A DNA stretch of 64,000 nt from Blastocatellia bacterium (GCA_963765495.1 CAVXWP010000008.1:256001-320000), one strand, 5' to 3'; positions 4,201-28,497 are shown, counted from the stretch's first letter. Made by a program: numbers and translations. The notes: generated from the letters alone by a model not told the origin.

Positions 4201-6227
4201 CATCCGGGCTTTGGCTTGCCGGTATTGTCAAGCTCGGTCCCTATCTCAAATGTGTCGTGCACGCGCCACAGGGCCCACATCCCCTGCGCAAAGTGCGGGT
4301 AGAAGTGACAGTGGAATATGGAATCGCCGACCGTCTGATTGAGGTTCCCGCTCCCGCGATAGACGTGCTCCATCGTATAGGCGATGCCGGGCGAGATCAT
4401 CTGGCTGTCGCGATAATGACTTTGATCGCTGTTTGGAGTGTGCAGCCACTGGTGCGCGTGAAGGTGATGGACGTGTGTGATATTTTGTCCGGCGTGGAGG
4501 ACTCGGAATTTCACATGGTCGCCCATATAGCTGTGATAAACATTTGAGGGATCATCGGGATAAAAAGCCTTTGTCGCCTTTGGTCCCGGTTTGATCTGAT
4601 TTGTTGACGGATCAACCGCGTTTGCGGGAATGTCTACGATCATCGAAGGGTCGCCGTTTGGCCACGAACTCAGGAAGAACTCTTCAAATCTACAAGTCGC
4701 GCACTGATACTCCGGGCCTACTTTGGTCCTGTTTGCCCAGATCGGCGGGCCGATTGCCGCCATGCCGTAGTTGATCGCGAAGAAATCACGCCCGGCCTGT
4801 AAGGTGTAGGCCATGTCGCCCGATGTGAACTGAGGAAATGCCTGCGTGGCGACGAAGTCGTCGTGATAATGGATGGCGAATTCTCTGTACGGATGTCTGC
4901 GGTCAGGGTAGGGCGGGTTCTGATCGAAGGTCGGCGCATCGCCTATAAAAAGCCCCGCATCCGTGCCCGTGATAATCGCCGTCAGATCCGAGTGATAAGT
5001 TATGTCGGCTGCCGGGTCTATAACCTTCTCACAGCCCGTTTGCGTGGTTTTGTATGCGGAGTCAACCATCTTCAAAATCGGGACGCACCGGCGATTCTGG
5101 TTTGTGTCGTTGCTGGGGTAAACCGCGCCGTAGTTTACTAATGGCTGTCCGCCGGGCGATTTCAAATATCCTCTTTGAGTAGGGGGAACGGGATTGCCGC
5201 CTTCGTCTGCAATGATGACCTGCCCGTCCTGAAGATTATGCTGGTTCCCGACAGGGTTTGTGATCTTTATTTCCCAGACGGGGAAGGTCTTTCCCTCAAG
5301 CGTGACGGTTTTTTGAGTGCCGTTCTCCATAAAGGGCGCAAGGCTCATGTTTGGAGGCAGGCTGGTGGAAATGTATGTGGCCTGCATCAGATCATCGTGT
5401 GTTACCTGACTCCGGTAAAACTCCGCGTCCTGCGGCTGAACCGTCACATTCCCGAAGAGGCCCTGCGAAAGCTGACCACCAAAATCGAGCCGCAGACCTA
5501 CATCGGCGGCCGTGCTGTAAAGGAGGAATGAGCCTTCGGCGGCGGCGTAAAGCGTATAGGTGATGGTATCGCCGGGAGCCACGAGGCCGCTCTTTCTCGA
5601 CGCCGTTCCGAATACGTCGTTTCTGCCTACCCAGGAGCCATCGGCGCTGATGCCTTCAATAGGAGTTCCGTCTGCGGCGGCGGCCTTGACGAGATTCATG
5701 CCTTCGACGTGGACCCCCGCATAACGTGTTGCGGGCTGCTCCGTGTCGGTTCCAAATGTCTGTTGGTTTGGAGGGTTCCCGTCGTTTGCGTTTACCATCG
5801 CGTTTTCGTTTGGTCTGTAGGCATTCGCAAGAGTGCTTTTAACCGGGAATCGCTTTGGGTCGAAGACACGCGGAACACTGCCGAGAAGGTTCTGAAATTT
5901 GATTTCCAGACAGTCATTCACCCTCACGCGCAATACAATCGGTCGAGGTCGCTTATCGGGTCTGAGCATCACTTTGCCTGGAGTCAGATTCCGGGTCGAA
6001 GGGTCATTTGAGACTACGTCGCGCCGAAGGGCAAACATCATTCCTCCGGCCTGAATTGCGCCCAGGCGGTTGATATAAAAAGCCTGATCTATGGCTACTA
6101 CGTCTGCCCTGGTCGTATGCTTGCATTCAGGCTGTTGCGCCCTTGCCGGACCGGAAACCCCGATCAATACCAGCGTAGCGAATACTCCAGGCAAGATGCG
6201 TGAAAACCTTCGTTTTCGCTCCATCAT
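1095..6227 (-). CDS. Large secreted multicopper oxidase, MnxG/manganese-oxidase-like (frameshifted near 1273-1289; the last ~60 aa of the ORF-track protein are out of frame)
   Basis: Signal peptide; Cu-binding motifs HVHHLHAHQW, FHCHFYPHFAQGM, QHIHLVKFD, FTHDHFSPSTHQQ, HMSAHFFTIHG; RBS AAGGAGG before the ATG at 6227. Confidence 0.85.
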   Translation of the reverse strand: MMERKRRFSRILPGVFATLVLIGVSGPARAQQPECKHTTRADVVAIDQAFYINRLGAIQAGGMMFALRRDVVSNDPSTRNLTPGKVMLRPDKRPRPIVLRVRVNDCLEIKFQNLLGSVPRVFDPKRFPVKSTLANAYRPNENAMVNANDGNPPNQQTFGTDTEQPATRYAGVHVEGMNLVKAAAADGTPIEGISADGSWVGRNDVFGTASRKSGLVAPGDTITYTLYAAAEGSFLLYSTAADVGLRLDFGGQLSQGLFGNVTVQPQDAEFYRSQVTHDDLMQATYISTSLPPNMSLAPFMENGTQKTVTLEGKTFPVWEIKITNPVGNQHNLQDGQVIIADEGGNPVPPTQRGYLKSPGGQPLVNYGAVYPSNDTNQNRRCVPILKMVDSAYKTTQTGCEKVIDPAADITYHSDLTAIITGTDAGLFIGDAPTFDQNPPYPDRRHPYREFAIHYHDDFVATQAFPQFTSGDMAYTLQAGRDFFAINYGMAAIGPPIWANRTKVGPEYQCATCRFEEFFLSSWPNGDPSMIVDIPANAVDPSTNQIKPGPKATKAFYPDDPSNVYHSYMGDHVKFRVLHAGQNITHVHHLHAHQWLHTPNSDQSHYRDSQMISPGIAYTMEHVYRGSGNLNQTVGDSIFHCHFYPHFAQGMWALWRVHDTFEIGTELDNTGKPKPGWNRALPDGEITTGVPIPGLVPMPIYAMAPMPARVEVVPVNATVKNASGQSVNTVVGYKSEVNPQDLAAGRNPGYPFFIPGIAGQRVPHPPLDYAPDLDDNGQPRLGPDGKPQLLDGGLPRYVGLYDPKIYEQHNRWDFTKLNDTLTAFELPEDGTPVEDVAMTTHSIRNHPSFTPGGAPKDFILNGRPRQPGAPYADPGIKLDGSPVLEKPIQYKAADIQLDLVLNKKGWHYPQARIISLWGDVNDTLSGKRAPEPLFFRSNSGQVIEYWLANLVPNYYELDDFQVRTPTDVLGQHIHLVKFDVTSSDGAANGFNYEDGTFSPDEVREQIEAINKAGGIYADSMLKSGTQRQLHPKNIPFFGNGPNNAWVGAQATVQRWYSDPLLDNEGHDRTITTVFTHDHFSPSTHQQIGLYAGLLVEPKGSQWQDPETGAFFGTRFDGGPTSWQAIIINKDEPSKTYREFMLEFQDRQLAYLNTSITTLVPYVPYGPNLPKKSPGGPFGWSDPNNAINPPINGGSSDPGGPPYPHLITNQFSTGSFSVSYRNEPLPYRLSPPKSGEYSVPAQTDLSYVFNSITRTDPDLNRQPDTGGVINPACNPAVTACFTYPKSPIGGGMLATDPYTPLLRAYEGDRVQIRVLVGAHMSAHFFTIHGVNWLFEPAYGDSGYRSTQGMGISEHYEMHFTLPRTSATTEQADYLYIPSSDATGLQNGNWGLMRSYKTSQADLLPLPNNKNFASHTTPNAGCPNGAPVRSFDVTATTAQQALGGPLFYNRRGRPGTPGQNQIVDTNALLYVQSSDLDGQGKLKADVPVEPLILRANAGDCMVVTLRNELPSDQTSLNGGSNLTVPFTVPVTVTDRASNIQEMVFFFNQNTYYAGFQELFNQNPYGFKLPDNPGLTQVAKSPNNQGWTITVNSTGQQYTIYQTNSTTLGVSCGITLNTSHEVGLHPTLVGFDITESNGVNAGLNPSNTAKPGSAKNLHVVCRKSRDRRRDRRNPLCAGRVWLGKPDAFGPVDAAPVRADRIVDSRAGRFNLADG

Positions 6228-7217: not shown

Positions 7218-8217
7218 TTGAATTTCCTCTATAGACCTTTCCGGTTAATGGGCTCGCCAGTTCCCGCTCGTATTCTCGAATATAATCGGCAGCCATCCTC
7301 AGGTAATGGTAGTCACGCATTGCCTTTTCGCGGCACGCTTTCGGGGATATGCTCGAAATACTTTCAAGGGCCTTCAGGTAATCGGCACGGTCGCTGCAAA
7401 CGAACCCCACGTCGGGAGAGATAATTTCGGGGCACGCGCCCCGGTCGCTACAGATGACCGGAGTTCCCGAAATCAACGCCTCGACCATAACAAGCCCGAA
7501 TGCTTCGGCCAGCTTGCTCGGGAAAAGAAAAGCAGCTGCGCCCGCAAGCAACTCTGCCTTTTGCCTGCCCTGAACATCTCCAACATATCTTGCCCCGCTC
7601 TGCTCGCACATCTCGGCTATTTTATGGATGACCTCATAGCTTCCTGCGGTCCCGGCTACGACAAGCGGCAGTCCCGACTCTTTAGAAAGAGAGAGAGCCG
7701 TGTCCAACCCTTTATCGAGAGCCCAGTCCATGCTCGACATGAAGAGAAGGTAATCATCTTTCGTTTCGGAGTAGATGTACTGCTCGGGGTCGATTCCATT
7801 CAGGACATACCTCTCGCGTCCGAGAGACTCGGCCATGGTCTTTGAGACGAAAATCCAGTTTTCAGTAGTCTCGGCAGGCGCCCGCCCGCGAACCCTGAGA
7901 TCCATGTGACAGGTCGTTACCCAGGGTTTCCCGATAGATTCCATATATTCGACAATGTATTCGTCCCTGTAGGCTATGTTGTGAAAAATGTCTATCTCAG
8001 CCAGCGGGGCTGAAACAAGCCGAGCCCCTTTCGGAAGCGGCTTTGTCGCGCCTTCGGGCAAGAGGTAAAACACATCGTGCCCGAGTTCGGCCAGCCCCTT
8101 TACGATCAGGTCCTGAATGCGATGGCCTGACCCGGAAGGGAAGAGCTTTGGATGAGGGCCGCTTCCAACCTCTCCTGAGGCCGGAAACTGATGATTCGAT
8201 GACAGCAAGACTCGCAT
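7192..8217 (-). CDS. Glycosyltransferase, family 4 (GT-B fold)
   Basis: EAFGLVMVEALISGTPVI motif; KGLD; NGID. Confidence 0.9.
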   Translation of the reverse strand: MRVLLSSNHQFPASGEVGSGPHPKLFPSGSGHRIQDLIVKGLAELGHDVFYLLPEGATKPLPKGARLVSAPLAEIDIFHNIAYRDEYIVEYMESIGKPWVTTCHMDLRVRGRAPAETTENWIFVSKTMAESLGRERYVLNGIDPEQYIYSETKDDYLLFMSSMDWALDKGLDTALSLSKESGLPLVVAGTAGSYEVIHKIAEMCEQSGARYVGDVQGRQKAELLAGAAAFLFPSKLAEAFGLVMVEALISGTPVICSDRGACPEIISPDVGFVCSDRADYLKALESISSISPKACREKAMRDYHYLRMAADYIREYERELASPLTGKVYRGNSSVIHLEEV

Positions 8218-8243
8218 GAGTTATTTCCTTCTGACCAATCTCT

Positions 8244-9032
8244 CTATCCGACCTTACCCCCGGTCAACCATCCGTCCTTAGAAAGCGAGGCGAGCCCCTC
8301 TTCTATATCCTCGGACGGAAGGTTTTCAAGGAGGTCGAGATGAGCGCACTCGGCGCTCCCTCGTGCTCTTACGACCGGAAAAGGCGGCTTACTCATAGTC
8401 GGTGTGACAAATCTGATGATGAATCCCGTGCGCCTGCTCCCCGAACGATTCGGATTCGACCCGTGTATTATGTTGAAATGGTGGAGCGACATCTCGCCTG
8501 CTTTCAGGCTTACGTCAACTGCTTCCGTTTCATTGATCTTCACTTTTACGTGCTGGCCCTGGCGCAACAAATTGTCCTCCGAGAGAATCTGCTCGTGCGG
8601 CAACATACGGTTGTGAGAACCCGGCACCACTCTTAAACAGCCGCTTTCCGGGGTGCTGTCGCTCAGGGCCACCCAGACTGATGTCGCATTTGATGCGCCG
8701 AGTCCCGCGTACGCGCTATCCTGATGCCAGGATGTGTAGGCCGTGCTATTTGGCGGTTTACTCAAGATAAGTGTTCCCCAGATTATCACCTCCGGCCCTA
8801 GAATCGAGGCTACCTTATCAATTATCCCGGGCTGCGTTGCCAGATCATAAGCCCATCGAAAGTAGAGATGAGACATCCTCAATGCCTGTTGGTTGGCCCC
8901 AGTTCGCGCCTCCACCTCCTCAAGAGCCGAGAGGTATCTTGAAACCTCGCTGCTTGAAAGCGCCGTCATCGGAAAGAGGACACCATCGCGATTGTATCGT
9001 TCCACCTGCTCACTTGACAGCCCATCTGACAT
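8244..9032 (-). CDS. PhyH-family Fe(II)/2-oxoglutarate dioxygenase
   Basis: WHQD (HxD), GCLRVVPGSH, IIHGS.PN.S..RR motifs. Confidence 0.9.
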   Translation of the reverse strand: MSDGLSSEQVERYNRDGVLFPMTALSSSEVSRYLSALEEVEARTGANQQALRMSHLYFRWAYDLATQPGIIDKVASILGPEVIIWGTLILSKPPNSTAYTSWHQDSAYAGLGASNATSVWVALSDSTPESGCLRVVPGSHNRMLPHEQILSEDNLLRQGQHVKVKINETEAVDVSLKAGEMSLHHFNIIHGSNPNRSGSRRTGFIIRFVTPTMSKPPFPVVRARGSAECAHLDLLENLPSEDIEEGLASLSKDGWLTGGKVG

Positions 9033-18202: not shown

Positions 18203-18217
18203 GAGTGATAAATAAAG

Positions 18218-18307
18218 CGGAGAAGGAGGGATTCGAACCCTCGATAGGCCTTTACAGCCTATAGCGGTTTAGCAAACCGCCGCCCTCAGCCACTAGGCGA
18301 CTTCTCC
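18218..18307 (-). tRNA. tRNA-Ser (anticodon GCT); CCA not encoded
   Basis: Reverse complement reads GGAGAAG...GCGGT-TT-GCT-AA-ACCGC...long variable arm...GGTTCGAATCCC...CTTCTCC-G. Confidence 0.97.
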
Positions 18308-18382: not shown

Positions 18383-20833
18383 TCATTCATATCTGAGCGC
18401 AACCATCGGGTCTACCTTTGTCGCCCGTCGCGCAGGGACGTAACAGGCCAGAAAAGCAACAAAAGCCAGCAAAACAGGTATCGAAATAAAGATCATCAGA
18501 TCTCTTGCGCTCACCCCAAAGAGGAGACTCTCCATAAGCCGGGTCAATACGACCGCCGCCCCAACCCCCAAGCCGAGGCCAATCAGGGCCAGTATCATCC
18601 CCTGACCTACGATGAGTTTTAAGATATTCCCCCGCGTAGCGCCTAGCGCCATCCTGATTCCTATTTCGTGCTTTCGCTGATTGACCGAATAACTCATGAC
18701 TCCGTAAATCCCAATGGCCGCAAGCAGCAGCGCGACGGCGGAAAATGTCCCTAGCAATACGGTGTAGAGTCGGGGCTGGGAGATTGAATCCGACACCATC
18801 TCTTGCATGGTCTTTATCTCGTAGACCGGCTGGTTGCTGTCTACGGCATATACCTGATCACGCACGCTGCGGGCGAGGCTCGTGGGGGGAGACGATGTCC
18901 GAACTACAAGAGACATAAACGGCCATGGTGTTTGCAGATAAGGCACGTACATTTCGGTCCCGGATTCCGTATCAAGCCCGGAATGTTTGACATCGCCTAC
19001 GATGCCGACAATCTCGCGGGAGTTATTGCCGCTTGATGGAATGGTCAGGTGTTTTCCCAGGGCATCCCCTTCGGGCCAGTAGGTTTTGGCCATAGTCTCG
19101 TTTAATATCACCACGCCCGGCGATCGTTCGTTGTCCTGATCGGTAAAGACCCTGCCGCTCTTGAGGGAGATGCCGATTGCCCGGAAATAATCCGGGCTGA
19201 TGCTGCGATAATTTGCCAGCAGTCTTTCATTGGGCGTAGCGGGCGGACGCCCATCAATGGTAAATCGGAGTGTGGCTTTGTCTTCGCTGAGTGGAAGCAT
19301 TATTGCCGCTCCGGCAGATTGAACACCGGGCAAAGCCTTTACCCGGTCGAGCACCTGCCCAAAGAAATCTCTGACCTGCTGGTCTTCCGAGTACTTGGAT
19401 TGCGGCAAGGTGATGCGCATTGTCAGCACGTCGTTTGGATTGAATCCGGGGTCTACATTCTGAAGCGATAAAAAGCTCTTTATCATAAGGCCTGCGCCGA
19501 TCAGAAGTACGGTTGCAAGCGAGACTTCGATTATGACAAAGATGCTCCGCAATCTGTTGCGACGAATGCCCCCGGTCGAACCCCGAGCCCCTTCTTTCAA
19601 TGTTTCATTCAAGTCGGGGCTGGATGCCTGGATTGCCGGGATGAGGCCAAAGATAATTCCGGTCAAAATCGAGATCAGGATTGTAAATCCGAGCACTTTT
19701 ATATCAATGCCGATCTCATCGAGACGGGGAATGTTGGCGGGGTTTATGGCCTTTAACAATCTGATGCCTGAGAATGCGATCAGCAATCCGAGTATGCCGC
19801 CGATGAGGCCGAGAATCAGGCTTTCGGTCATCAACTGTCTTATGAGTCGGAATCTCGTTGCGCCAAGCGCAGTTCGAATCGAAAACTCTTTTTGTCGGGC
19901 AGTGGCGCGGGCCAGCAGCAGGTTGGCTACATTTGCGCAGGCGATTAGAAGAACAAAGCCTACCGCAGCGAGCAGGATCAGCAGGGCGGGTCTTATATCG
20001 CCGATCAGGTGCTGCTCAATGGGTACGACCTGAAGGCTCACGCTTGTGTTCGTATCCTTGTACTGTTCCTCAAGACGACCTGCGATGGTCTCCATCTCTT
20101 TTTGCGCCTGCTCGCGACTGAACCCCGGTTTGAGCCGACCGATGCCGAGAAGGAATCGCGATGATCGTTTATTAATCGTATCCGGGGCCACCACAGACGG
20201 CACACGGATGGCGTCGCCTCCATCCATGGAGAGTGGAACCCATATCTCATCCTTTTTTTCGGGGGCTCGAAAATTTGCGGGAGTGATGCCTACGATGACG
20301 AAGGGCGCATCATTAAGAAGAATAGACTTGCCGACAATATCGGGGTCGGAAGCAAACCGGCGCTGCCATAAACCGTGGCTGAGGATTACTACTCGATTTG
20401 CTCCCGGCTGGTCTTCCTCCGGCAGGAATACGCGGCCATGGATGGGTGTCACTCCTAGTGTCGAGAAGAAATTGGCCGTAACGATTGACCCTGTCAGATG
20501 TTCCGGCTCTCCTTCTCCGATCAGGTTGAAATCCTGGTATGAAAAAGCGGCCAGTTGATCGAAAGCCTGGCTTTGCTTGCGATAATCCTCAAAATCAGGG
20601 ACCGAAATCGGCTGTTGATTCTTGCCGGTCTTGAGATTGTTAACCCAGACCATCATCACTTTGTCCGGCTCACCGTAAGGTAGAGGGTGGAGCAGGACCC
20701 CGTTCACTATGGAGAAGATAGCTGTATTTGCCCCGGTTCCCAATGCTAGCGCAAGCACTGCCACTATAGTAAACCCTATATTTTTGGCCAGCATTCGAAA
20801 TGAATACTTAATGTCTTGCAGTATGGTCTCCAT
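18383..20833 (-). CDS. ABC transporter permease, duplicated MacB/FtsX type (Acidobacterial ADOP-like)
   Basis: QDIKYSFRML, LALGTGANTAIFS, VLLIACANVANLLLAR, AAIGIYGVMSYSV.QR..EIGIRMALGA, RRATKVDPMVALRYE. Confidence 0.95.
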   Translation of the reverse strand: METILQDIKYSFRMLAKNIGFTIVAVLALALGTGANTAIFSIVNGVLLHPLPYGEPDKVMMVWVNNLKTGKNQQPISVPDFEDYRKQSQAFDQLAAFSYQDFNLIGEGEPEHLTGSIVTANFFSTLGVTPIHGRVFLPEEDQPGANRVVILSHGLWQRRFASDPDIVGKSILLNDAPFVIVGITPANFRAPEKKDEIWVPLSMDGGDAIRVPSVVAPDTINKRSSRFLLGIGRLKPGFSREQAQKEMETIAGRLEEQYKDTNTSVSLQVVPIEQHLIGDIRPALLILLAAVGFVLLIACANVANLLLARATARQKEFSIRTALGATRFRLIRQLMTESLILGLIGGILGLLIAFSGIRLLKAINPANIPRLDEIGIDIKVLGFTILISILTGIIFGLIPAIQASSPDLNETLKEGARGSTGGIRRNRLRSIFVIIEVSLATVLLIGAGLMIKSFLSLQNVDPGFNPNDVLTMRITLPQSKYSEDQQVRDFFGQVLDRVKALPGVQSAGAAIMLPLSEDKATLRFTIDGRPPATPNERLLANYRSISPDYFRAIGISLKSGRVFTDQDNERSPGVVILNETMAKTYWPEGDALGKHLTIPSSGNNSREIVGIVGDVKHSGLDTESGTEMYVPYLQTPWPFMSLVVRTSSPPTSLARSVRDQVYAVDSNQPVYEIKTMQEMVSDSISQPRLYTVLLGTFSAVALLLAAIGIYGVMSYSVNQRKHEIGIRMALGATRGNILKLIVGQGMILALIGLGLGVGAAVVLTRLMESLLFGVSARDLMIFISIPVLLAFVAFLACYVPARRATKVDPMVALRYE

Positions 20834-21048
20834 TCAGCCTCCAATCAGGACATTGAAAAGGGTTCATTCGGGGGAATTCTATATCTAAATTTCATCCGAC
20901 AGTCAATGTAATCAGTTTGACCGTAGGAAAGCAAACCTGGGAAAGGACGGACATTTTAGAAAACCGAAGGCCCCGGGGAGGGGGCGCTGATCTGTCTCTT
21001 TTCTACGCTACAAGACTAAGAGGGACACGTGGATTCAAACCCTATTTG

Positions 21049-22380
21049 TCAATCAGTAGCCCACATAAGCTGGCTCATTACGGATACGGCGGTCACAATC
21101 AGAATAATTATGCCTCCGGCAACAAACATAGCTGTAATATTTAGGTCAACCATGACGCCAGCCAGTGCCAGAGACGCCGGTTCGAGCAACGAGACGGCAA
21201 ACATCATTACACCGACTACTCTGCCAAGCATTCCCGATTTCGATCTGGTTTGGAGCCACGCCATAATATTGACATTCGCAAGGCCGGACCCGATGCCCAT
21301 CGCAGCCATCACAAAGACAGCTACTAAAACATTCGAGGCAAATCCCATTGCGATCATGCCAATCGAGAAGAGAATGCCGAGTCCTATCAACAATCTTCCC
21401 CGGCGACGCGGCTCTTTCATCGTTCCTGCGAGGAAGGTCCCAATTATCGTACCTCCGCCAAGGGCGGAAAATATCGTCCCGAGCGCCATTGCTCCACCCT
21501 TGTATCGCTGGTCAGATAGTGCGGTTATGCCTACCGATAGCGGGCCTGTGAATGAGAATTCCATCACAGCAATGAAAAACATTAGGGCGCGAAGCACAGG
21601 GTCTTTCCAGGCATAGCGCGCCCCTTCAATTACGGAGGACATCAATTCCCTGAATGGATTCCGATTCTGTATTACGGGCTCTTCTTCAAAAGGAGGAGCA
21701 TCATTTTCGGGCGGAGCCACGGTATTGGGAATCCCTCTCATCATCCAGAGGCAAAGGGCTGAAATGATAAATGTAAGGGCGTCGGTCGCGAATGCTACAC
21801 CGTTATTTGTGGCTTCGATCACGAACCCGGCAAGCGCCGGTCCAACAAAACTCATGATTCGTCTTGACCCCTGGAGGAGGGAGTTGGCAGGGGTTAACCG
21901 CTCTCTTGGAATCAGCAGGGGTACGGCCGCCATGTAGGCGGGGAAGAAGAACGCGTCTACGCAACCAAACACGATGGCGAGGAGATATAGATGCCAGAGC
22001 TTGAGGCTTTCCATCAGAATTAAGACCATTACTGCTGCCATAAGTAAGGCGCGGACCACATCAGAGACCAGCATTAGCGTTCTTGGTGAGACCCGATCGC
22101 TAATAGCTCCAGCCAGAAGCTGGAAAACCGCCCGTGTGATCCCGGTTGCCATAAGCACTGTGCCCACCGCAATCCCGGACCCGGTCAATTGCAGTGTCAG
22201 CCATGGCAATGCGATAAGATAAAACTTGTCGCCAAAGACCGAAATAACCTGCCCGACCCACAGCAAACGAAAATTCGGAATTGTGAGCGGCTGCCAAAGC
22301 GGCAAACCTCGCAATCGTCCGATGTATGAACTCCTGGGCGGCGGTTCATCTTCACCTGAGTACCTTTGGGAACCCGTCAT
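21049..22380 (-). CDS. MFS transporter (DHA3/EntS/MefA-like exporter)
   Basis: NFRLLWVGQVIS.FGD, G.ISDR..PR, about 12 hydrophobic segments. Start chosen at MTGSQ (RBS CAGGAG). Confidence 0.9.
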   Translation of the reverse strand: MTGSQRYSGEDEPPPRSSYIGRLRGLPLWQPLTIPNFRLLWVGQVISVFGDKFYLIALPWLTLQLTGSGIAVGTVLMATGITRAVFQLLAGAISDRVSPRTLMLVSDVVRALLMAAVMVLILMESLKLWHLYLLAIVFGCVDAFFFPAYMAAVPLLIPRERLTPANSLLQGSRRIMSFVGPALAGFVIEATNNGVAFATDALTFIISALCLWMMRGIPNTVAPPENDAPPFEEEPVIQNRNPFRELMSSVIEGARYAWKDPVLRALMFFIAVMEFSFTGPLSVGITALSDQRYKGGAMALGTIFSALGGGTIIGTFLAGTMKEPRRRGRLLIGLGILFSIGMIAMGFASNVLVAVFVMAAMGIGSGLANVNIMAWLQTRSKSGMLGRVVGVMMFAVSLLEPASLALAGVMVDLNITAMFVAGGIIILIVTAVSVMSQLMWATD

Positions 22381-22499
22381 GGATTTGGGGCAACTCCTGT
22401 TGGCAGTCAAAAGATAAGCCTCCTCCCGAGGCTCTCCCTAAGCGGGAAGGGTCACTAGAAATCTTTGAAACAACGAATTAAATTAGTATCGTCTTGCTA

Positions 22500-25046
22500 C
22501 TAGAACAACCACAATTCGGGCCTTAGCGCCTGCCATACCTTGTTGGCCAGAATCAACCCTATTGATTTTCGGCCAAAGCTGATGCGAGCATAGCCGGTCA
22601 TCCCCGGGCGGAGGATCCCTTCAGAATTATCAACAACCACTTCGACGGGATAGAAGTTTTGCCCCAACTGGTTTGGAGCGGGTTCAGCATTTATTTTTGA
22701 GACGCGCCCTGTAAATGTGCGTCCCGGGACAGTCTTCAGCTTGAATCGAACCGGGGAGTCCATCCGCACATCTGCGATCTCGCGCTCGCTCACTTCTATT
22801 CTGAGCAGGAAGTCCGCAAGTTCGCCTATGCGGCAAACCTCTTCGCCCCGGCTGTAGTGCTTTCCAACCTGGCGTCGCAAATCATCGCCAAGGACTACGC
22901 CTGCGCGCTCGGCGACAAGGTTCATCCCCTGATACTGCCGGTCAAGCAGATCGCGTCGCTGCTTGAGCGATTCGAGCTCTCCGCGATTGGCGTGGAGATC
23001 GGCTATGAGCGCCTCAAAGCTTGACTGCGCCGCCCGCGCTTCGGTTTCAGCGACAAGCGAGGTCGTTTCGGCACCGCTCGCCTGGCGGCGATGCTCGACT
23101 AAAGCGGCCTCAAGCCGGGCGCGTGCTGCCTGTTCTTCTTTTTCAGAAATCTTCATTGCCGCGACCGCTCTATCTAGTTGTTGCTCGCCCACAAGTCCCT
23201 CGGAGAGCAGTCTCTTGTATCGCTCAACCTCTCGCCTGTTGAATTCCATTTCGGTCTGTTTCAACTCGATCTCAGACTGCATGACTTTTAGCGAGGCGGG
23301 AAGGGAAGATGCCCGACGGGTTTGCCATTCATTGATCTGGCTTGTCTCTTCTTTCAACTCCCCGGCCATTCGCTTTCGCTCAACCTCTTTGAAATTGGCC
23401 GAAAGCATCAGCTCGCTGCGCACTCTCAACTCGTCTTCGAGCCGGGTTGCATTTGTGCTCAGTCTTTCGATTTCCGCATTGAGTTGCGTGAGGCGATCCT
23501 CGATTTCAGGATTTGAAAGATGGGCTAATTTTGTTCCGATCGCGATTATGTCCCCTGGCGCAACGAAGACCTCGGAAAGCACGCCGTCGGTGTTGGCACG
23601 GGCAACTTCTTCGCGTCCCGGCGGTAATAGCAAGGCGCAATCACTTCCCGTAGACGCTTCCCACGGCGCAATAAGGGCCGTTATTATCAGCAGCGCGGCG
23701 AAAATCTTGATTGCCTGTCGGCGGGTAGGAAACCGACTCTTCCCGTCCCCTTCGGTTTTGTCCTTCGTCTCCTGATCTCCTCTCTCTCTCTCCGTTTGAG
23801 CAGACATCTTTGATTCTCCTTCCTGCCGACCTTGCCCTAGCGTCCTGAAGGCTGCCTTCGCTGCGGGCTTCCACCATTTTTCTGTAAGCAAAATAGCAAG
23901 AATCACGGTAAAGAGCACGCCGATCGGCCCCAGACCGCTCATCAATTTCTCTCCGGCCCAGCGTAAAATAAACCATATTAAAATTATTGAGTAGAGGATT
24001 GAGCAAACCCAATAAATCGAATAAAGAAGGGGTCGGTCGGGCTCTATCCTCTGCGCCGGTCGCTGGCCTGCGATCCGTCCGTAAAGCGATTTCATATATT
24101 CGGAGGATCGGGTCTGAAGGTTTTGCACGCCCAGGGCTTGTGAGAGCGCATAGTATCCGTCAAGTTTGATGAGCGGGTTGCAGTTTATAATGATGTTAAA
24201 AGTCCCGCCTAAAAATACTAAAAAGCAAAAATCCGCAAGAAGCGAATAGGGCGTTGCCACAAGCCAGATCAAGGCGCCCAGGGCGCTGATCGAGAGTTGC
24301 CAGTAGATGCCCGCAAATATTACCCACAACCTCTCGGTTCTTCTGCCGAAGCGATAAATATCGGTTACATTGCAATAGAAGGCAGGCAGCACATAGTAAA
24401 TCATCAGGACTCCGACTTCGCGGACGTCTCCCCCGAAGTGTTTGCAGGCGAGCCCGTGCGCAAGTTCATGGAGCGCAGTGATGGTCAGCGTGATCGCGAG
24501 TATCGTCGCCAGACCATATTCGGAATAGGTATAGGATGTATATGAAGAGACTTCACCCGAATTGCTCAACATCAGGAAGGTCGCAAGTATCATCAAAACA
24601 AATGAGGCTGTTATAAAGGGCCTAGTCATTGCCCATCCCAACCTTTTATCCATCCATCCAAGTAATCGGTCAGGGTTGAAGAGGTGGAATTTTATGTATA
24701 ACCCTCGCCCCTGTTTGCCGGAGGAATCGGGCTGTAAGTCGCCGCCTCGTTCAAGCAGTCCAAGGTCATCGAGTTTTGTGAGGAATTTTGAAAGCGCGAT
24801 TGAGGATACGCGTGGGCCGGTTCCTGTTCGTCCTCCGCGAGCGACCTCGGATGGCGTCTGTGTGCCGTCGAACTGGCAGAATACTCTGTACTCAGGAGTC
24901 TTGAGGAGGAAGTAACGAGAAGTGACTGAATTCCTGATTACATAGCGGATCATACCCTCTTCCACCTGTTCGGTAACGTCTACCGAATCCGACACACGCG
25001 GGGGGAAACAGCAGTAGAGTCCAGTTTTTTCATCGGGTCCATGCAT
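22500..25046 (-). CDS. Fusion of a PqqD/RRE-like N-domain, an M50 (site-2) zinc metallopeptidase and a HlyD-type periplasmic adaptor
   Basis: N-terminal YVIRNSVTSRYF...FDGTQT...FLTKLDDLGLL; LHELAH (HExxH); NCNPLIKLDG (NxxPxxxxDG); lipoyl halves, long coiled coil and LRPGMTG C-terminus. Confidence 0.9.
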   Translation of the reverse strand: MHGPDEKTGLYCCFPPRVSDSVDVTEQVEEGMIRYVIRNSVTSRYFLLKTPEYRVFCQFDGTQTPSEVARGGRTGTGPRVSSIALSKFLTKLDDLGLLERGGDLQPDSSGKQGRGLYIKFHLFNPDRLLGWMDKRLGWAMTRPFITASFVLMILATFLMLSNSGEVSSYTSYTYSEYGLATILAITLTITALHELAHGLACKHFGGDVREVGVLMIYYVLPAFYCNVTDIYRFGRRTERLWVIFAGIYWQLSISALGALIWLVATPYSLLADFCFLVFLGGTFNIIINCNPLIKLDGYYALSQALGVQNLQTRSSEYMKSLYGRIAGQRPAQRIEPDRPLLYSIYWVCSILYSIILIWFILRWAGEKLMSGLGPIGVLFTVILAILLTEKWWKPAAKAAFRTLGQGRQEGESKMSAQTERERGDQETKDKTEGDGKSRFPTRRQAIKIFAALLIITALIAPWEASTGSDCALLLPPGREEVARANTDGVLSEVFVAPGDIIAIGTKLAHLSNPEIEDRLTQLNAEIERLSTNATRLEDELRVRSELMLSANFKEVERKRMAGELKEETSQINEWQTRRASSLPASLKVMQSEIELKQTEMEFNRREVERYKRLLSEGLVGEQQLDRAVAAMKISEKEEQAARARLEAALVEHRRQASGAETTSLVAETEARAAQSSFEALIADLHANRGELESLKQRRDLLDRQYQGMNLVAERAGVVLGDDLRRQVGKHYSRGEEVCRIGELADFLLRIEVSEREIADVRMDSPVRFKLKTVPGRTFTGRVSKINAEPAPNQLGQNFYPVEVVVDNSEGILRPGMTGYARISFGRKSIGLILANKVWQALRPELWLF

Positions 25047-25213
25047 GTACAGGCAGCCTTATAACACAAAGTAAAAGAGCGCGGAAGCCGGGGATTTCAA
25101 ATTGGTTTCTGTCAGAATTTCTTTGCGCCTGACGAAACCAAATCCAATCCTCGTTCCGCGCCCCTCGCCAGTACCGATCAATCAGTAAAGGCTTGCTTTG
25201 ATCGAGAACTTGA

Positions 25214-25306
25214 TTAATCGCTGAGCAGAAAACCCGGCGCCACAACCTGTTCCATCTCTTCGATTTCCATCTCATCAATAATCAATTCGTTTCTTTCGTC
25301 GGTCAT
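25214..25306 (-). CDS. Putative precursor peptide A3, 30 aa: MTDERNELIIDEMEIEEMEQVVAPGFLLSD
   Basis: RBS AAGGAG, ATG at 25306, TAA; paralogous to the two adjacent sORFs. Confidence 0.9.
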   Translation of the reverse strand: MTDERNELIIDEMEIEEMEQVVAPGFLLSD

Positions 25307-25347
25307 GATCTTCTCCTTTTGATTTAAGCAGTCTATGTATTGATAAT

Positions 25348-25378
25348 TGCTGCGCGTCGGTGTCGCGATGACGCGCAG
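25348..25378. repeat. Conserved hairpin copy 1, downstream of peptide A2
   Basis: CTGCGCGTC...GACGCGCAG; 27/29 identical to 25519-25547. Confidence 0.8.
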
Positions 25379-25389
25379 GTATAAGCGAA

Positions 25390-25482
25390 TCAGTTGCTGA
25401 TCAACATACCCGGAGCTTCGATCTGCTCCATCTCTTCGATTACCATCTCTTCAAGGATCACTTCGTTTCTTTCGTCAGTCAT
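25390..25482 (-). CDS. Putative precursor peptide A2, 30 aa: MTDERNEVILEEMVIEEMEQIEAPGMLISN
   Basis: RBS AAGGAGG, ATG at 25482, TGA. Confidence 0.9.
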   Translation of the reverse strand: MTDERNEVILEEMVIEEMEQIEAPGMLISN

Positions 25483-25518
25483 GGCGTCCTCCTTTTTAAT
25501 GTTTTCGGTCGGGAAAAG

Positions 25519-25547
25519 TGCTGCGCGCCAGTGTCGCGATGACGCGC
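25519..25547. repeat. Conserved hairpin copy 2, downstream of peptide A1
   Basis: TGCTGCGCGCCAGTGTCGCGATGACGCGC. Confidence 0.8.
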
Positions 25548-25558
25548 TATAAAATAAA

Positions 25559-25657
25559 CTAGTCGCTGATCAACATGCCCGGAGCTTCGATCTGCTCCAT
25601 CTCTTCTATGTTAAGCTCGGTTACGAGTACGGCTTCGTTGTTTCTTTCGTCAGTCAT
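25559..25657 (-). CDS. Putative precursor peptide A1, 32 aa: MTDERNNEAVLVTELNIEEMEQIEAPGMLISD
   Basis: RBS AAGGAG, ATG at 25657, TAG. Confidence 0.9.
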   Translation of the reverse strand: MTDERNNEAVLVTELNIEEMEQIEAPGMLISD

Positions 25658-25716
25658 GATGTTCTCCTTCTGAATTTTAGGTTTTTCTTATTACTGCGTG
25701 TTACATCCTGTTGTAG

Positions 25717-25732
25717 TGCAACAGTCGTGCCA
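25717..25732 (-). promoter_or_regulatory. Sigma54 (-24/-12) promoter for the peptide operon
   Basis: Minus strand TGGCACGACTGTTGCA matches TGGCACG-N4-TTGCW with exact GG-N10-GC spacing, 60 bp upstream of the first ATG. Confidence 0.9.
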
Positions 25733-25771
25733 CTCTTTTACATCTTCGAACTCTGATGTCTTTCTATGCAG

Positions 25772-25784
25772 TTTCAATGACTTA
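25772..25784 (+). promoter_or_regulatory. IHF-like site
   Basis: TTTCAATGACTTA versus consensus WATCAANNNNTTR (1 mismatch), lying between the promoter and the enhancer boxes. Confidence 0.5.
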
Positions 25785-25819
25785 GCCCGATTGGCGAGAA
25801 CTACCTGATTTCACTCGGA

Positions 25820-25924
25820 GTGTGAACCAGATACACACATTAGAAGCGCATTCCCGTATTTGTTGCAAATAAAAGGTGATAGTGGCAGTGTGTAGCAGCT
25901 ACACACCTGTGAATCTGCTACACA
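25820..25924. promoter_or_regulatory. Three palindromic boxes, candidate enhancer-binding-protein UAS
   Basis: GTGTGAACCAGATACACAC (25820-25838), GTGTGTAGCAGCTACACAC (25888-25906, perfect palindrome), TGTGAATCTGCTACACA (25908-25924). Confidence 0.7.
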
Positions 25925-26094: not shown

Positions 26095-26400
26095 ATGAGC
26101 GTTTTGCCGTATAGGGATGGTCTGTTTGAAAGTTTTGAAAAGCTCGTCGAGATAAAGATTTGTAGTATGCCTGCCAGCGTTCCAGAAAATAATAAGCTGC
26201 TTCGCTGCTTTCAATATATAAAGATGGACACGGTTTCGCTTGGCGACTATTGCTGGAATGGCGACTGTACAAACTGCCAGATATGGTACAGGGCTGAGAA
26301 TGGCGAAGTTAAGTCTGCACTTGCCTGCAAAATGTATGTGCGGCCCGGGCTCGATATAACAGCCGTAAGCGCAAATTTGAGATTTGATTTGACTGAGTGA
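26095..26400 (+). CDS. Small 2Fe-2S cluster-binding protein
   Basis: CWNGDCTNC...ALAC ligand pattern. Confidence 0.8.
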   Translation: MSVLPYRDGLFESFEKLVEIKICSMPASVPENNKLLRCFQYIKMDTVSLGDYCWNGDCTNCQIWYRAENGEVKSALACKMYVRPGLDITAVSANLRFDLTE

Positions 26401-26403
26401 TCT

Positions 26404-27042
26404 CTATTGTGCGGGTTTGAACAGGAAACGGTGAATCATGTCACTAAGAGCGTTTATAGCGCTTTCCTTGTCAAATTCTCCGATCCCCGTCACATAATAC
26501 TGGGAGAGATCAAAGACCGCGCGTTGTACGACAAAGGCTGCGGCATCGACATCGATCTGCTGTGTAAGACCGGCTTTTTGAGCCAGAGAAATCAACTCTC
26601 TGAGTCTGGAAATGGACCTCCCCATAATGGCTCTCTGTCTTTCGGCAAACTCCGCATCCTTCAGGACGAGTTCACAGATTACCCGATGAAGACCGGCATT
26701 CTTTTGTTTGTCCTCGATTGCGTGAAGGACAGCCTGTCTTATGCGCGGCCTCAGTTCGGGGTCAAAAAGGTCTTCGGGTCTCAGGGTGGCAAAGGTATTC
26801 TTAAACAACTCGTCGGCAAGCCGATCAAAGATGGTCAGAAGCAACTGCCGTTTGTCATTAAAGTAGACATAAAAGGAACCGACGCTTACCCCTGCTTCGG
26901 CTGCAATATCATTCGATGTGGTCTTTTCAAATCCGCGTTCCTCGAATAGTTCCGTAGCTGCAAGGATGATCTTTTCCTTTGTCTGTTTGCTCCTGGCCTG
27001 CTTTGGATCACTCGGAATGCTTACTATAATTGCCTCACCCAT
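26404..27042 (-). CDS. TetR/AcrR family transcriptional regulator
   Basis: KIILAATELFEERGFEKTT..DIAAEAGVSVGSFYVYF HTH. Start at MGEAII (RBS AGGAG). Confidence 0.93.
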   Translation of the reverse strand: MGEAIIVSIPSDPKQARSKQTKEKIILAATELFEERGFEKTTSNDIAAEAGVSVGSFYVYFNDKRQLLLTIFDRLADELFKNTFATLRPEDLFDPELRPRIRQAVLHAIEDKQKNAGLHRVICELVLKDAEFAERQRAIMGRSISRLRELISLAQKAGLTQQIDVDAAAFVVQRAVFDLSQYYVTGIGEFDKESAINALSDMIHRFLFKPAQ

Positions 27043-27205
27043 GTTTTCTCCTAAATGATGATTTATTTCCAAGATCGGGAGGCAATTATATAACACCTGA
27101 TGCGGAGTTCAAAATAGTTCCTAACAATTTGAAGATAAACTCGATAAACAGCCTGAGAATTTGAGTTCATATTCAATCAGAGGAAAGCGAGCAACAAGAC
27201 CCGCA

Positions 27206-28396
27206 TCAGGATCGAGCGGAATCAAGCCCCTCGGGCACCTGGTCGAGAACGGGCAGAGTTTGTCGAGCTTCAGGATTTGTCTTTAGGATCGCCGGATCTG
27301 GAAGGGGAATAGGATTGTAGAGCGTGTCGCGTTCTACGGGAACGCGTCCGGCATCACGGATCAAATTCTCTATTCCAGACTTGGTAAGATGGTTGGCATT
27401 CCCCTCGGCCAGATAAGATTCCATCAAAGAACCGCCGTCGTTTATCGTCCCGTCAAGATCATCGGCGCCGAATCGTTGAGCCACCTGAGCCAGATTTTTC
27501 CCAAGCATAACCCAATAGGCTTTTATGTGGTTGATATTATCGAGAAGCAGCCGCGAGATTGCTATAGTCTTGAGGCTGTCGATCCCCGAAGGGCCGGGCA
27601 GGTTGGAAATAGCGGTACCCTCCGGGTGAAATGCAAGGGGTATGAAACACATGAATCCGCCGGTTCGATCCTGTAGCTCTCTGAGCCGGATCAAATGATC
27701 CACACGATCTTCCGCGGTTTCGATATGACCGTAAAGCATCGTTGCATTTGTGTGAATACCGCGTTTATGGACTTTCTCGGTCAGTTCGAGCCATCTTTCT
27801 GCCGACGTTTTATGAGCGCAGATGCGACTGCGCGTAGGCTCGGCAAATATTTCTGCCCCGCCGCCAGGACAGCTACCCAGCCCGGCTGAAATCAGGCCAT
27901 CTATTACCTCTTCGTCGCTCATCCTGCAAATTCTTGTCAGGTGATCAAGCTCGACCATTGTAAATGCCTTAAGGTGTAAATCGGGGAAATTCCGCTTTAA
28001 TTCACTCAATAATGATGTGTAATAATCGAATTGCAAACGAGGATGTAACCCGCCTACTATATGAATCTCACGCGCTCCTTCGTTGTAGGCTTTCCCGGCT
28101 ATTTCAACGCACTCCTCGACAGACCACTCATAGCCTTCGGGGTCTCGAACGCGGCGATAGAAACTGCAAAACGCGCAATCCGATATACATATATTTGTAT
28201 AGTTCATGTGGCGATTGACATTGTAGTAGGTAACATTTCCGTTTATACGTTCCCGAACCCGATTGGCCATCGCCCCGATGGCGATCAGATCATCCGAGCG
28301 GAATAGTTCCAGCCCGTCTTCGAAAGATAATCGCTCGTTGCCTTCAACTTTTTCCGCGATCTCCGCGATCTTCGGGGATGAAAAGACTAGATTCAT
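27206..28396 (-). CDS. mqnE: Aminofutalosine synthase (radical SAM, futalosine menaquinone pathway)
   Basis: [49 protein letters not shown]. The start is uncertain. Confidence 0.85.
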
Positions 28397-28497
28397 AAAT
28401 CGCTCCTTCGATGCTGATCTGGCTGCCGCATTCTCAAATTCGCAAGCCGTGTCTTTAGAATTATACCGAGAACGCGAGGACATACCAAATGATTGCC

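Follow-up and report, generated by a model that had tools for sequence, protein, structure and literature searches.

The locus described here raises the question of what three very short genes might produce when they stand in tandem directly before a gene for a membrane protease that is fused to a secretion adaptor. It lies in a window of 64,000 nucleotides (nt) from a Blastocatellia bacterium of soil (GCA_963765495.1 CAVXWP010000008.1:256001-320000), the window being the whole stretch of DNA that was analysed, and it holds three small open reading frames (sORFs) followed, on the same strand, by an open reading frame (ORF) of 848 amino acids (aa). The product of this ORF combines a recognition element of the kind named after ribosomally synthesised and post-translationally modified peptides (RiPP recognition element, RRE), a site-2 (M50) metalloprotease, and a HlyD-type periplasmic adaptor. 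The explanation that best accounts for the whole, to which we give a probability of roughly 0.55, is that the leaders of the sORF products would guide their cleavage after Ala-Pro, and that unmodified hexapeptides, possibly signals, would then be exported. The genes and domains concerned are the following:

25559-25657, minus strand: precursor gene 1, 32 aa (MTDERNNEAVLVTELNIEEMEQIEAPGMLISD; C-terminal part NIEEMEQIEAPGMLISD), leader MTDERNNEAVLVTELNIEEMEQIEAP, predicted core GMLISD
25390-25482, minus strand: precursor gene 2, 30 aa (MTDERNEVILEEMVIEEMEQIEAPGMLISN; C-terminal part VIEEMEQIEAPGMLISN), predicted core GMLISN
25214-25306, minus strand: precursor gene 3, 30 aa (MTDERNELIIDEMEIEEMEQVVAPGFLLSD; C-terminal part EIEEMEQVVAPGFLLSD), leader end EQVVAP, predicted core GFLLSD
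22500-25046, minus strand: 848-aa ORF, RRE plus site-2 (M50) metalloprotease plus HlyD-type periplasmic adaptor
24747-25001, minus strand: RRE domain, about residues 16-100 of the 848-aa protein (AlphaFold2 fold and Foldseek)
23847-24698, minus strand: site-2 (M50) intramembrane metalloprotease domain, about residues 117-400, polytopic (motifs, NF041824, and Foldseek)
22500-23846, minus strand: charged linker, predicted membrane anchor (about residues 447-465), and HlyD-type adaptor with a long coiled coil

The three sORFs occupy positions 25214-25657 on the minus strand, upstream of the gene for the 848-aa protein, and each holds a Shine-Dalgarno site of the AAGGAG type (GAAGGAGAA, AAAGGAGGA, and AAAGGAGAA) 4-5 nt 5' of its ATG. 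Their alignment has 18 invariant columns out of 32, and they also align with the precursors of relatives (gene 1 with 20 others). An earlier note on this DNA had described three sORFs with ribosome-binding sites, a shared leader, and six-residue tails, and the translations, the Shine-Dalgarno sites, and the alignment bear this description out. As a group, the precursors are acidic sORFs of 30-36 aa with neither a basic N-region nor a lipobox. The three window peptides match no family of Pfam or NCBIfam at E ≤ 0.1, and NCBIfam returned nothing at E ≤ 10 for one of them and four peptides of relatives. A search of the same genome found no further precursor copy beyond these three, and a promoter and terminator scan gave nothing above the shuffled expectation.

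For the 848-aa protein, the RRE fold, the intact catalytic motifs, and the adaptor domain are all demonstrated. In the AlphaFold2 model, the N-terminal domain has the topology of PqqD-like RREs (strands 22-29, 32-39, and 44-49, and helices 50-57, 65-69, and 82-94), with pLDDT > 90 over residues 21-70. When a domain-sized model was searched with Foldseek, the top match in the PDB was TbiB1 in complex with its leader (E 7.4e-4; target-normalised TM 0.66), and further matches were lasso B1, the PbtF RRE, and PqqD, the best ones being leader-binding RRE proteins. In the protease domain, residues H193, E194, H197, P291, D296, and G297 are invariant in 113 homologues, and N288 and N290 are kept in at least 90%; these residues form the HExxH and NxxPxxxxDG zinc-site motifs of site-2 proteases. 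Structural matches were found to SpoIVFB (probability 0.99) and to the M. jannaschii site-2 protease (0.96), both with E above 0.01, and Foldseek with the 420-residue model gave no match at E ≤ 0.001. The NCBIfam model daptide_HExxH (NF041824) aligns with residues 16-389 over positions 1-366 of its 379, scoring 199.2 bits against a cut-off of 300. The membrane anchor was read from the sequence as the one hydrophobic segment after the charged linker, and HlyD_D23 and HlyD_3 match residues 684-816 above their cut-offs (PF16576 with 51.4 bits, cut-off 30; PF13437 with 48.2 bits, cut-off 22.2), while a TIGR01843 alignment spanning residues 449-829 scores under its own. The genome holds a single copy of this kind of protease; its other matches cover only the C-terminal half, from residue 409.

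Whether the sORFs are genes at all is settled by their recurrence. The N-terminal 420 residues of the protein found matches in 64 of 401 genomes sampled from the phylum (a tally that counts in two genomes flagged as unpublished, G024 and G152), mostly in open frames of 700-900 aa, and two genomes of the same family hold just upstream an sORF ending in EEVEEVVAP followed by AVVVTA, and in VEMEEVVAP followed by GILIVN. The GTDB species collection yielded 18 loci, mostly labelled Blastocatellia, and 15 of them (15 of the 16 with enough upstream DNA) hold a six-residue-tail precursor; its ATG and the protease start are about 225-275 nt, and at most about 470 nt, apart. Of the three other loci, two are without upstream DNA, and the third, L075, is distant (36% identity) and holds a longer-tailed variant. 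An AAGGAG-type site precedes all 19 precursor genes of this collection (17 with six-residue and 2 with nine-residue tails). A metagenome scan added 29 loci, five of them with at most 176 nt of upstream DNA, and all 24 loci with at least 300 nt upstream hold one to four precursor genes; over genome and metagenome loci together, the sORFs are placed about 195-345 nt upstream of the protease start. Pooling gave 44 unique precursor genes, in a set chosen for tails of exactly six residues, with 31 distinct hexapeptides. The conservation search beside M50-HlyD homologues that had been suggested as a check thus found the sORFs conserved, and the conserved unit is a two-gene cassette of one to four precursor genes plus one fusion of RRE, site-2 protease, and HlyD adaptor (RRE-S2P-HlyD). 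Four cassette-bearing records of metagenome-assembled genomes (L059, L064, L071, and L072) are titled 'uncultured Clostridia bacterium', yet they are 58-64% identical to Blastocatellia loci, and these labels are probably wrong.

Since the same AAGGAG-sited sORF recurs upstream of orthologous protease genes, the sORFs are not chance ORFs. A reading as chance frames before an ordinary efflux operon could appeal to the public annotation of homologues as 'efflux RND transporter periplasmic adaptor subunit', and to the TetR gene and the two transporter genes that flank the locus. It is refuted, and left with practically no probability, by the 44 unique conserved precursors, which have ribosome-binding sites and a constant position ahead of the protease gene, and by their coding conservation: nucleotide identity per codon is 0.41-0.89 over the last 20 leader codons (0.59-0.89 over the last 13) and 0.42-0.53 in the tail, against 0.25-0.45 just past the stop. 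The proposal that the sORFs are real precursor-type genes coupled to the RRE-M50-HlyD protein is likewise upheld by the domain, motif, and fold evidence, and we regard the sORF products and the fusion protein as very probably a pair of substrate and enzyme.

How the protein might recognise its substrate is suggested by the leader. In the window, the leader ends with E(-8), M/V(-7), E(-6), Q/E(-5), I/V(-4), E/V(-3), A(-2), and P(-1). E(-8), A(-2), and P(-1) do not vary in any of the 44 unique precursor genes, and only V, M, I, or L occur at positions -7 and -4. The leader of the daptides is likewise numbered to end at P(-1), and the exchanges L(-7)A and M(-4)A abolish its processing, according to the daptide report (Ren et al., 10.1101/2023.03.08.531785). 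The leader ends EMEQIEAP and EMEQVVAP fit the daptide motif ELExMEAP, the comparison being with the printed motif and not with the authors' hidden Markov model. Because the window leader shares with the daptides the hydrophobic residues at -7 and -4 and the Ala-Pro end, the recognition features and the likely cleavage site are expected to carry over. Cleavage after Ala-Pro had been offered as a guess; with the P(-1) end of the daptide leader and the hydrophobic positions in all 44 genes it becomes better founded, and, by this analogy, the cut probably falls there.

A predicted complex between residues 1-400 of the protein (alignment of 113 rows) and the 32-aa precursor (21 rows) reached an ipSAE of 0.59 (runs of 0.61, 0.59, and 0.56), whereas the best of three controls reached 0.01; the runs share at least 68% of their contacts, and the pLDDT of the partner is at least 58. 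In the calibration of the tool, the mark was reached by 58 of 80 solved complexes and by 2 of 110 mismatches, but at values of at most 0.60 only 7 of the 80 solved complexes pass, and both passing mismatches sit there. Since solved complexes between RREs and leaders exist, likeness to them may contribute to the score. The prediction thus lends weak support to a binding of the leader by the RRE domain.

The closeness of this leader and protease to those of the daptides raises the question of whether the cassette is a daptide cluster. As described by its authors, daptide clusters hold an N-terminal RRE fused to an intramembrane site-2 protease, an average of 2.3 short ORFs with ELExMEAP leaders, cores with many branched aliphatic residues and a C-terminal Thr that is invariant, and obligatory genes for a DUF-RRE protein, a dehydrogenase, an aminotransferase, and a methyltransferase (10.1101/2023.03.08.531785); the features that the earlier note had named (leader, RRE-protease fusion, C-terminal Thr, and enzyme partners) agree with this account. 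Like the daptide system with its precursor MpaA and protease MpaP/DapP, the window has several tandem short precursors, an ELExMEAP-type leader, an RRE-HExxH protease, and branched-aliphatic cores. Unlike in the daptides as so described, a C-terminal Thr is found in none of the three tails and in 4 of the 44 genes of relatives, the core comprises 6 residues instead of about 20, a HlyD adaptor is joined to the protease, and the host is a diderm acidobacterium, whereas the daptide hosts given are Actinomycetota, Bacillota, and, for one cluster, Pseudomonadota.

The enzymes of the daptide pathway were sought in the whole genome, which is 97.9% complete. The DapB/daptide_RRE model (NF041823) had no match at E ≤ 0.001, a weak blank because the model matched in none of 14 control genomes either. 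The best scores in the genome for daptide_DH (NF041822) and daptide_amino (NF041821) were 16.7 bits against a cut-off of 300 and 205.6 bits against a cut-off of 450, and sub-threshold hits to these models occur in 13 and in all 14 of the control genomes, respectively. No methyltransferase lies in the locus of the window, no model search aimed at the daptide methyltransferase having been made. A further model, NF041825, proved to describe an unrelated family, BslA. The missing daptide partners had already been remarked upon, and their absence now extends genome-wide for the models NF041821-NF041823, with the reservation given for NF041823. Since there is neither a Thr tail nor a daptide enzyme above its cut-off, the window cassette is, as judged from its genes, not a daptide cluster.

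Other systems in which a membrane protease handles a small peptide offer partial parallels. In enterococci and streptococci, Eep-type site-2 proteases release hydrophobic signal peptides of 5-8 residues. Their substrates are lipoprotein signal peptides or SHP precursors, without an RRE, a leader motif, or an adaptor fusion, and their hosts are monoderm. The comparison with Eep made in the earlier note therefore holds as a likeness of function and fails for the origin of the substrate, since dedicated sORFs without a basic N-region or lipobox take the place of signal peptides here.

In the epipeptide systems, the M50 protease YydH/EpeP/LiaK is said to cleave and export EpeX (PMC10885120), and a membrane M50 protease as leader peptidase and possible export route for a small ribosomal peptide would be common to both; the epipeptides, however, need a radical S-adenosylmethionine (SAM) epimerase, none of which is linked here, and their proteases, as presented there, hold no adaptor fusion. 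EmrAB-TolC, MacAB-TolC, and HlyBD-TolC (PMC8277102) resemble the window protein in their HlyD-family adaptor with one anchor and a long coiled coil. In these tripartite efflux and type I secretion systems, as far as that source describes them, the adaptor is paired with an energised transporter, whereas here it is fused to a protease, and no such transporter is conserved in relatives. A search of the literature, which did not extend to the supplementary datasets of the daptide paper, brought up no earlier account that deals with the RRE-S2P-HlyD fusion, the peptides, or the LEERIAP motif. What appears new is the setting of a leader and RRE-protease module that is itself known: its architecture, its type of product, and its phylum are all new.

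The evolution of the tail suggests which part of the precursor is the product. Tail position 1 is G, A, T, or S in 42 of the 44 genes, positions 2-4 are almost all V, I, L, or M, position 5 is T, G, S, V, N, or A in 40, and position 6 is G, D, A, T, or N in 41. The pattern G-phi-L-phi-S-D/N that had been read from the three tails therefore describes this window, but not the relatives, where the wider pattern [G/A/T/S]-aliphatic-aliphatic-aliphatic-[T/G/S/V/N/A]-[G/D/A/T/N] holds. In 17 pairs of loci whose protease N-termini are at least 95% identical, leader identity is 100% and tail identity 68%, and in 67 pairs with 80-90% protease identity the values are 95% and 42%, respectively. At least 12 different tails occur on identical leaders, and the same tails are found again in several metagenomes. 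The tail thus changes much faster than the leader or the protease. This corresponds, in sequence, to a conserved leader with a hypervariable product, a pattern that does not prove positive selection. By analogy with structures of site-2 proteases and their substrates, the way in which the tail pairs with the membrane-reentrant hairpin of the protease may also lie behind its constant length and its beta-prone make-up.

Two other roles have to be considered against this pattern. The peptides might be substrates or regulators that gate or titrate the protease-adaptor, or the acidic leader of 24-26 residues might be the functional part, and no product would then be exported. The far better conservation of the leader would fit this role, as would the lack of a transporter or receptor conserved beside the cassette, and the beta-branched aliphatic tails could, as we infer, just fit the substrate groove of the protease. 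We nevertheless hold it to be quite unlikely, since the leader motif is homologous to that of the daptides, which is discarded after cleavage according to the daptide report, tandem copies with different tails and tail alleles that recur across metagenomes are typical of products, and the fusion to a periplasmic adaptor points to export.

The short hydrophobic peptides could also kill or inhibit competitors, in the manner of bacteriocins, whose loci typically combine a conserved leader, a hypervariable core, and multiple precursors as well, and the daptides, too, are reported as aliphatic-rich peptides that act on membranes. A membrane cannot be spanned by as few as six residues, however, and no immunity-type gene is conserved beside the cassette, which makes an antimicrobial role improbable.

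If hexapeptides are released, the genes around the cassette should indicate whether they are modified and how they leave the cell. The neighbours in the window are:

21049-22410, minus strand: major facilitator superfamily (MFS) transporter, 89 nt downstream of the 848-aa ORF (PF07690, 134.8 bits)
18383-20833, minus strand: ADOP duplicated permease, 215 nt downstream of the MFS gene (TIGR03434, 1074 bits)
18217-18307, minus strand: tRNA-Ser, following the ADOP permease gene
26404-27096, minus strand: TetR-family regulator, about 750 nt upstream of precursor gene 1 (PF00440, 62.9 bits)

A Cys-rich ORF of 101 aa without a Pfam match (26095-26400, plus strand) lies between the TetR and precursor genes. 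When all ORFs of at least 90 aa in 19 loci were clustered, with overlapped frames removed, the protease-adaptor was the only family common to all 19, no enzyme family recurred beside the protease, and the MFS, ADOP, TetR, and radical SAM genes of the window fell in no family shared with relatives. The genes directly downstream in relatives are mutually unrelated and encode, among others, a zinc-ribbon protein, a GNAT protein, a glycosyltransferase, and peptidases.

These results bear on the question of whether the peptides are RiPPs in the strict sense, that is, whether enzymes with genes in other parts of the genome act on the hexapeptide or on the uncut precursor (through cyclisation, C-terminal chemistry, or epimerisation) before the RRE-protease removes the leader. 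RRE domains are typical of RiPP pathways, a tail of fixed length with a small first and a small or acidic last residue could suit head-to-tail or C-terminal chemistry, and the model of the epipeptide protease YydH/LiaK gives a weak match (58 bits against a cut-off of 225). On the other hand, no enzyme family recurs beside the cassette in the 19 loci, the only RRE found sits on the protease itself, and no daptide enzyme scores above its cut-off genome-wide. The neighbouring radical SAM gene (27206-28483) was considered as a maturase and rejected, being of the CofH/MqnC type and not conserved beside relatives. A modified product is thus unlikely, if less so than the regulatory or antimicrobial roles, and an unmodified, exported hexapeptide stands, on the gene content, at about even odds.

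The two transporters had been counted among the parts of the system. BLASTP found no MFS or ADOP homologue within about 8 kb in the loci of 18 relatives (17 from the genome collection plus L039), and the genome itself encodes 53 full-length ADOP paralogues, so that both genes are ruled out as conserved parts. The idea of a minimal system that releases hexapeptides consequently survives for the precursors and the protease, but not for the transporters. The ADOP permease is probably an incidental neighbour; its paralogues often stand in head-to-tail arrays of up to about 17 genes (for example, G000:C9:342866-387352 and G000:C7:148861-172983). The MFS transporter may be a local partner of the adaptor rather than a conserved part: its gene directly follows that of the adaptor, as in tripartite efflux systems, at least as the source consulted describes them, and it is absent from the loci of the 18 relatives. 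Domains of the TolC type (OEP) have 16 matches in the genome and none in the window, and there is no linked ATPase.

The mechanism that would best fit these data begins in the cytoplasm, where the RRE would bind the acidic leader through its hydrophobic residues at -7 and -4, the Glu residues at -8 and -6, and the Ala-Pro at -2 and -1. Binding would bring the Pro-Xaa bond to the zinc site within the membrane, where the protease would cut after Ala-Pro to free an aliphatic-rich peptide of six residues, here GMLISD, GMLISN, and GFLLSD. The hexapeptide, most likely unmodified, would leave through the fused periplasmic adaptor and an unlinked outer-membrane channel of the TolC type, and the adjacent MFS pump may assist its export in this genome. 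Its most likely role would be that of an extracellular, lineage-specific signal.

The signalling step draws on a recurrent neighbour, a membrane protein of 825-850 aa with HD-GYP, GAF, and GGDEF domains. Among 48 loci of relatives, 23 (for example, L071 4828-7380) have its gene immediately upstream in the same orientation, so that the precursor gene is flanked by it and by the protease gene, and two more have it adjacent but rearranged; most of the loci without it are too short to show one. This protein could be a receptor or an output for the peptide. Regulators with TPR domains, one winged-helix and one sigma-54 activator, occur in four loci each and are absent from the window. That the hexapeptide acts as a signal remains a tentative proposal, clearly less probable than its release and export.

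Several points weigh against leader-guided release and export of hexapeptide signals. No ATPase or conserved inner-membrane transporter that could power the proposed export lies beside the adaptor in the loci of relatives. In this genome, no receptor candidate stands beside the cassette, the intact orthologue of the HD-GYP/GGDEF protein (57% identity) being encoded on another contig (G000:C5:153876-156287), and the synteny with the signalling gene may partly mirror shared descent, because the loci compared are from related Blastocatellia. By its sequence, the protease is a homologue of the daptide protease and not an equivalog, and the Pfam Peptidase_M50 model gives it 19.3 bits, under its cut-off of 27.2. 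The score of the predicted leader complex comes without any contacts listed, and the selection of the 44 genes by tail length bears on the uniformity of that length. The rapid change of the tail could reflect a relaxed constraint, or a constraint of the protease groove, rather than diversifying selection, and expression, cleavage, and export are predictions from the genes. Beside the question of tail length, three loci (L058, L066, and L096) hold a second precursor with a nine-residue tail, GIIFTGKNP, GIILSGKTP, and GIIVSGRTP, in which a hexamer is followed by K/R-x-P, and which may point to a second trimming step.

The transcript of the cassette also holds predicted RNA structures:

25523-25547, minus strand: G+C-rich hairpin after precursor gene 1, 8-bp stem (predicted fold)
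about 25350-25378, minus strand: near-identical hairpin after precursor gene 2, 9-bp stem (predicted fold; sequence common to both spacers)
25070-25170, minus strand: long hairpin between precursor gene 3 and the protease gene, followed by the U-run UUUUACUUU

The z-scores of the two spacer hairpins are only -0.4 and -1.3. The long hairpin has a folding energy of -60.2 kcal/mol (z = -4.0) and is kept in 12 relatives, with an invariant basal stem, GGCGCGG/CCGCGCC, and a compensatory change in at least one sequence for 14 of its 25 predicted pairs. It is likely a partial terminator or an mRNA-stabilising 3' end, and precursor mRNA would therefore exceed protease mRNA, as in many peptide operons.

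The protease belongs to a much wider family. A search with its N-terminal 420 residues gave 10597 matching representative clusters at E ≤ 0.001, of which 6768 remain at E ≤ 1e-10 and 533 at E ≤ 1e-30; among the best 150 clusters, 98 are at least 650 aa long, and 95 match the HlyD half of the window protein. In public annotation, close homologues go by the names 'putative peptide zinc metalloprotease protein' and 'efflux RND transporter periplasmic adaptor subunit'. Members from acidobacteria at a greater distance (27-37% identity) lie beside tandem sORFs with LE(E/K/Q)RIAP, LExRDAP, or LEERENP leaders and very different cores, some Gly/Asn/Pro-rich and of 30-66 residues, others four identical copies ending in TRAAIAMG, or SVLWM. 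A pattern search found such sORFs in 9 of 20 enlarged loci. Relatives in Planctomycetota, Actinomycetota, and Chloroflexota are suggested by a feature search and are to be taken as leads only. Large planctomycete proteins may also carry LExRxxP-like motifs close to their N-termini.

Some of these loci are worth describing individually. One to three tandem sORFs with a LE(E/Q/G/S)R(I/D)AP leader and Gly/Asn/Pro/Ser-rich cores of 22-66 residues (for example, LEQRIAP followed by GGCNGGGNSKSGSNSGSKSGSG) lie beside distant RRE-S2P-HlyD genes in L041 (G038:C87, about 8032-8700), L052 (G369:C113, about 3718-4400), L043, L044, and L053. L042 (G074:C187, 7932-8315) holds four identical tandem copies of MAKKSTKKVVKLNVERLEKRIAP followed by TRAAIAMG, and L045 (G060:C92, 11604-11862) three copies of the same kind, one with a single-residue difference; in both, a basic leader precedes an eight-residue tail, and the copies are convergent with, and just downstream of, the protease-adaptor gene. 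In L050 (G280:C2), about 3.1-3.2 kb past the protease start, MSTDILELEERENP is followed by SVLWM, a leader variant with Asn-Pro before the putative cut, and in L035 (G254:C143) a leader ending in IEKLEARDSP, with Ser-Pro in that place, is followed by SILWFSNHVL, both tails being described as very short and hydrophobic.

Taken furthest, these data might mean that Acidobacteria own a ribosomal signalling system, in which an RRE-guided intramembrane protease, as the inner-membrane section of an ATPase-free, TolC-linked conduit, would free unmodified, lineage-specific hydrophobic hexapeptides from a daptide-type leader, and in which the HD-GYP/GAF/GGDEF membrane protein, mostly a neighbour of the cassette, would sense them, cell-cell signalling thus setting cyclic di-GMP, and that LExRxAP leaders with RRE-S2P-HlyD proteins constitute a general secretion route of diderm bacteria; as a whole, this extension is speculative and rather unlikely. 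On the narrower reading of leader-guided cleavage and export, the daptide pair of leader and RRE-protease would have been reused without daptide chemistry and joined to a secretion adaptor in a diderm phylum. Many small peptide genes have probably been overlooked, because the protease family is large (the 6768 clusters and 64 of 401 genomes given above), unnamed, and annotated as an 'efflux RND adaptor'. The predicted products are easily testable, consisting of six unmodified residues with predictable masses and with 31 natural variants known. If they are indeed exported signals, the cassette would represent a rare ribosomal peptide pheromone system in soil bacteria of the Gram-negative type, with a possible link to cyclic di-GMP.

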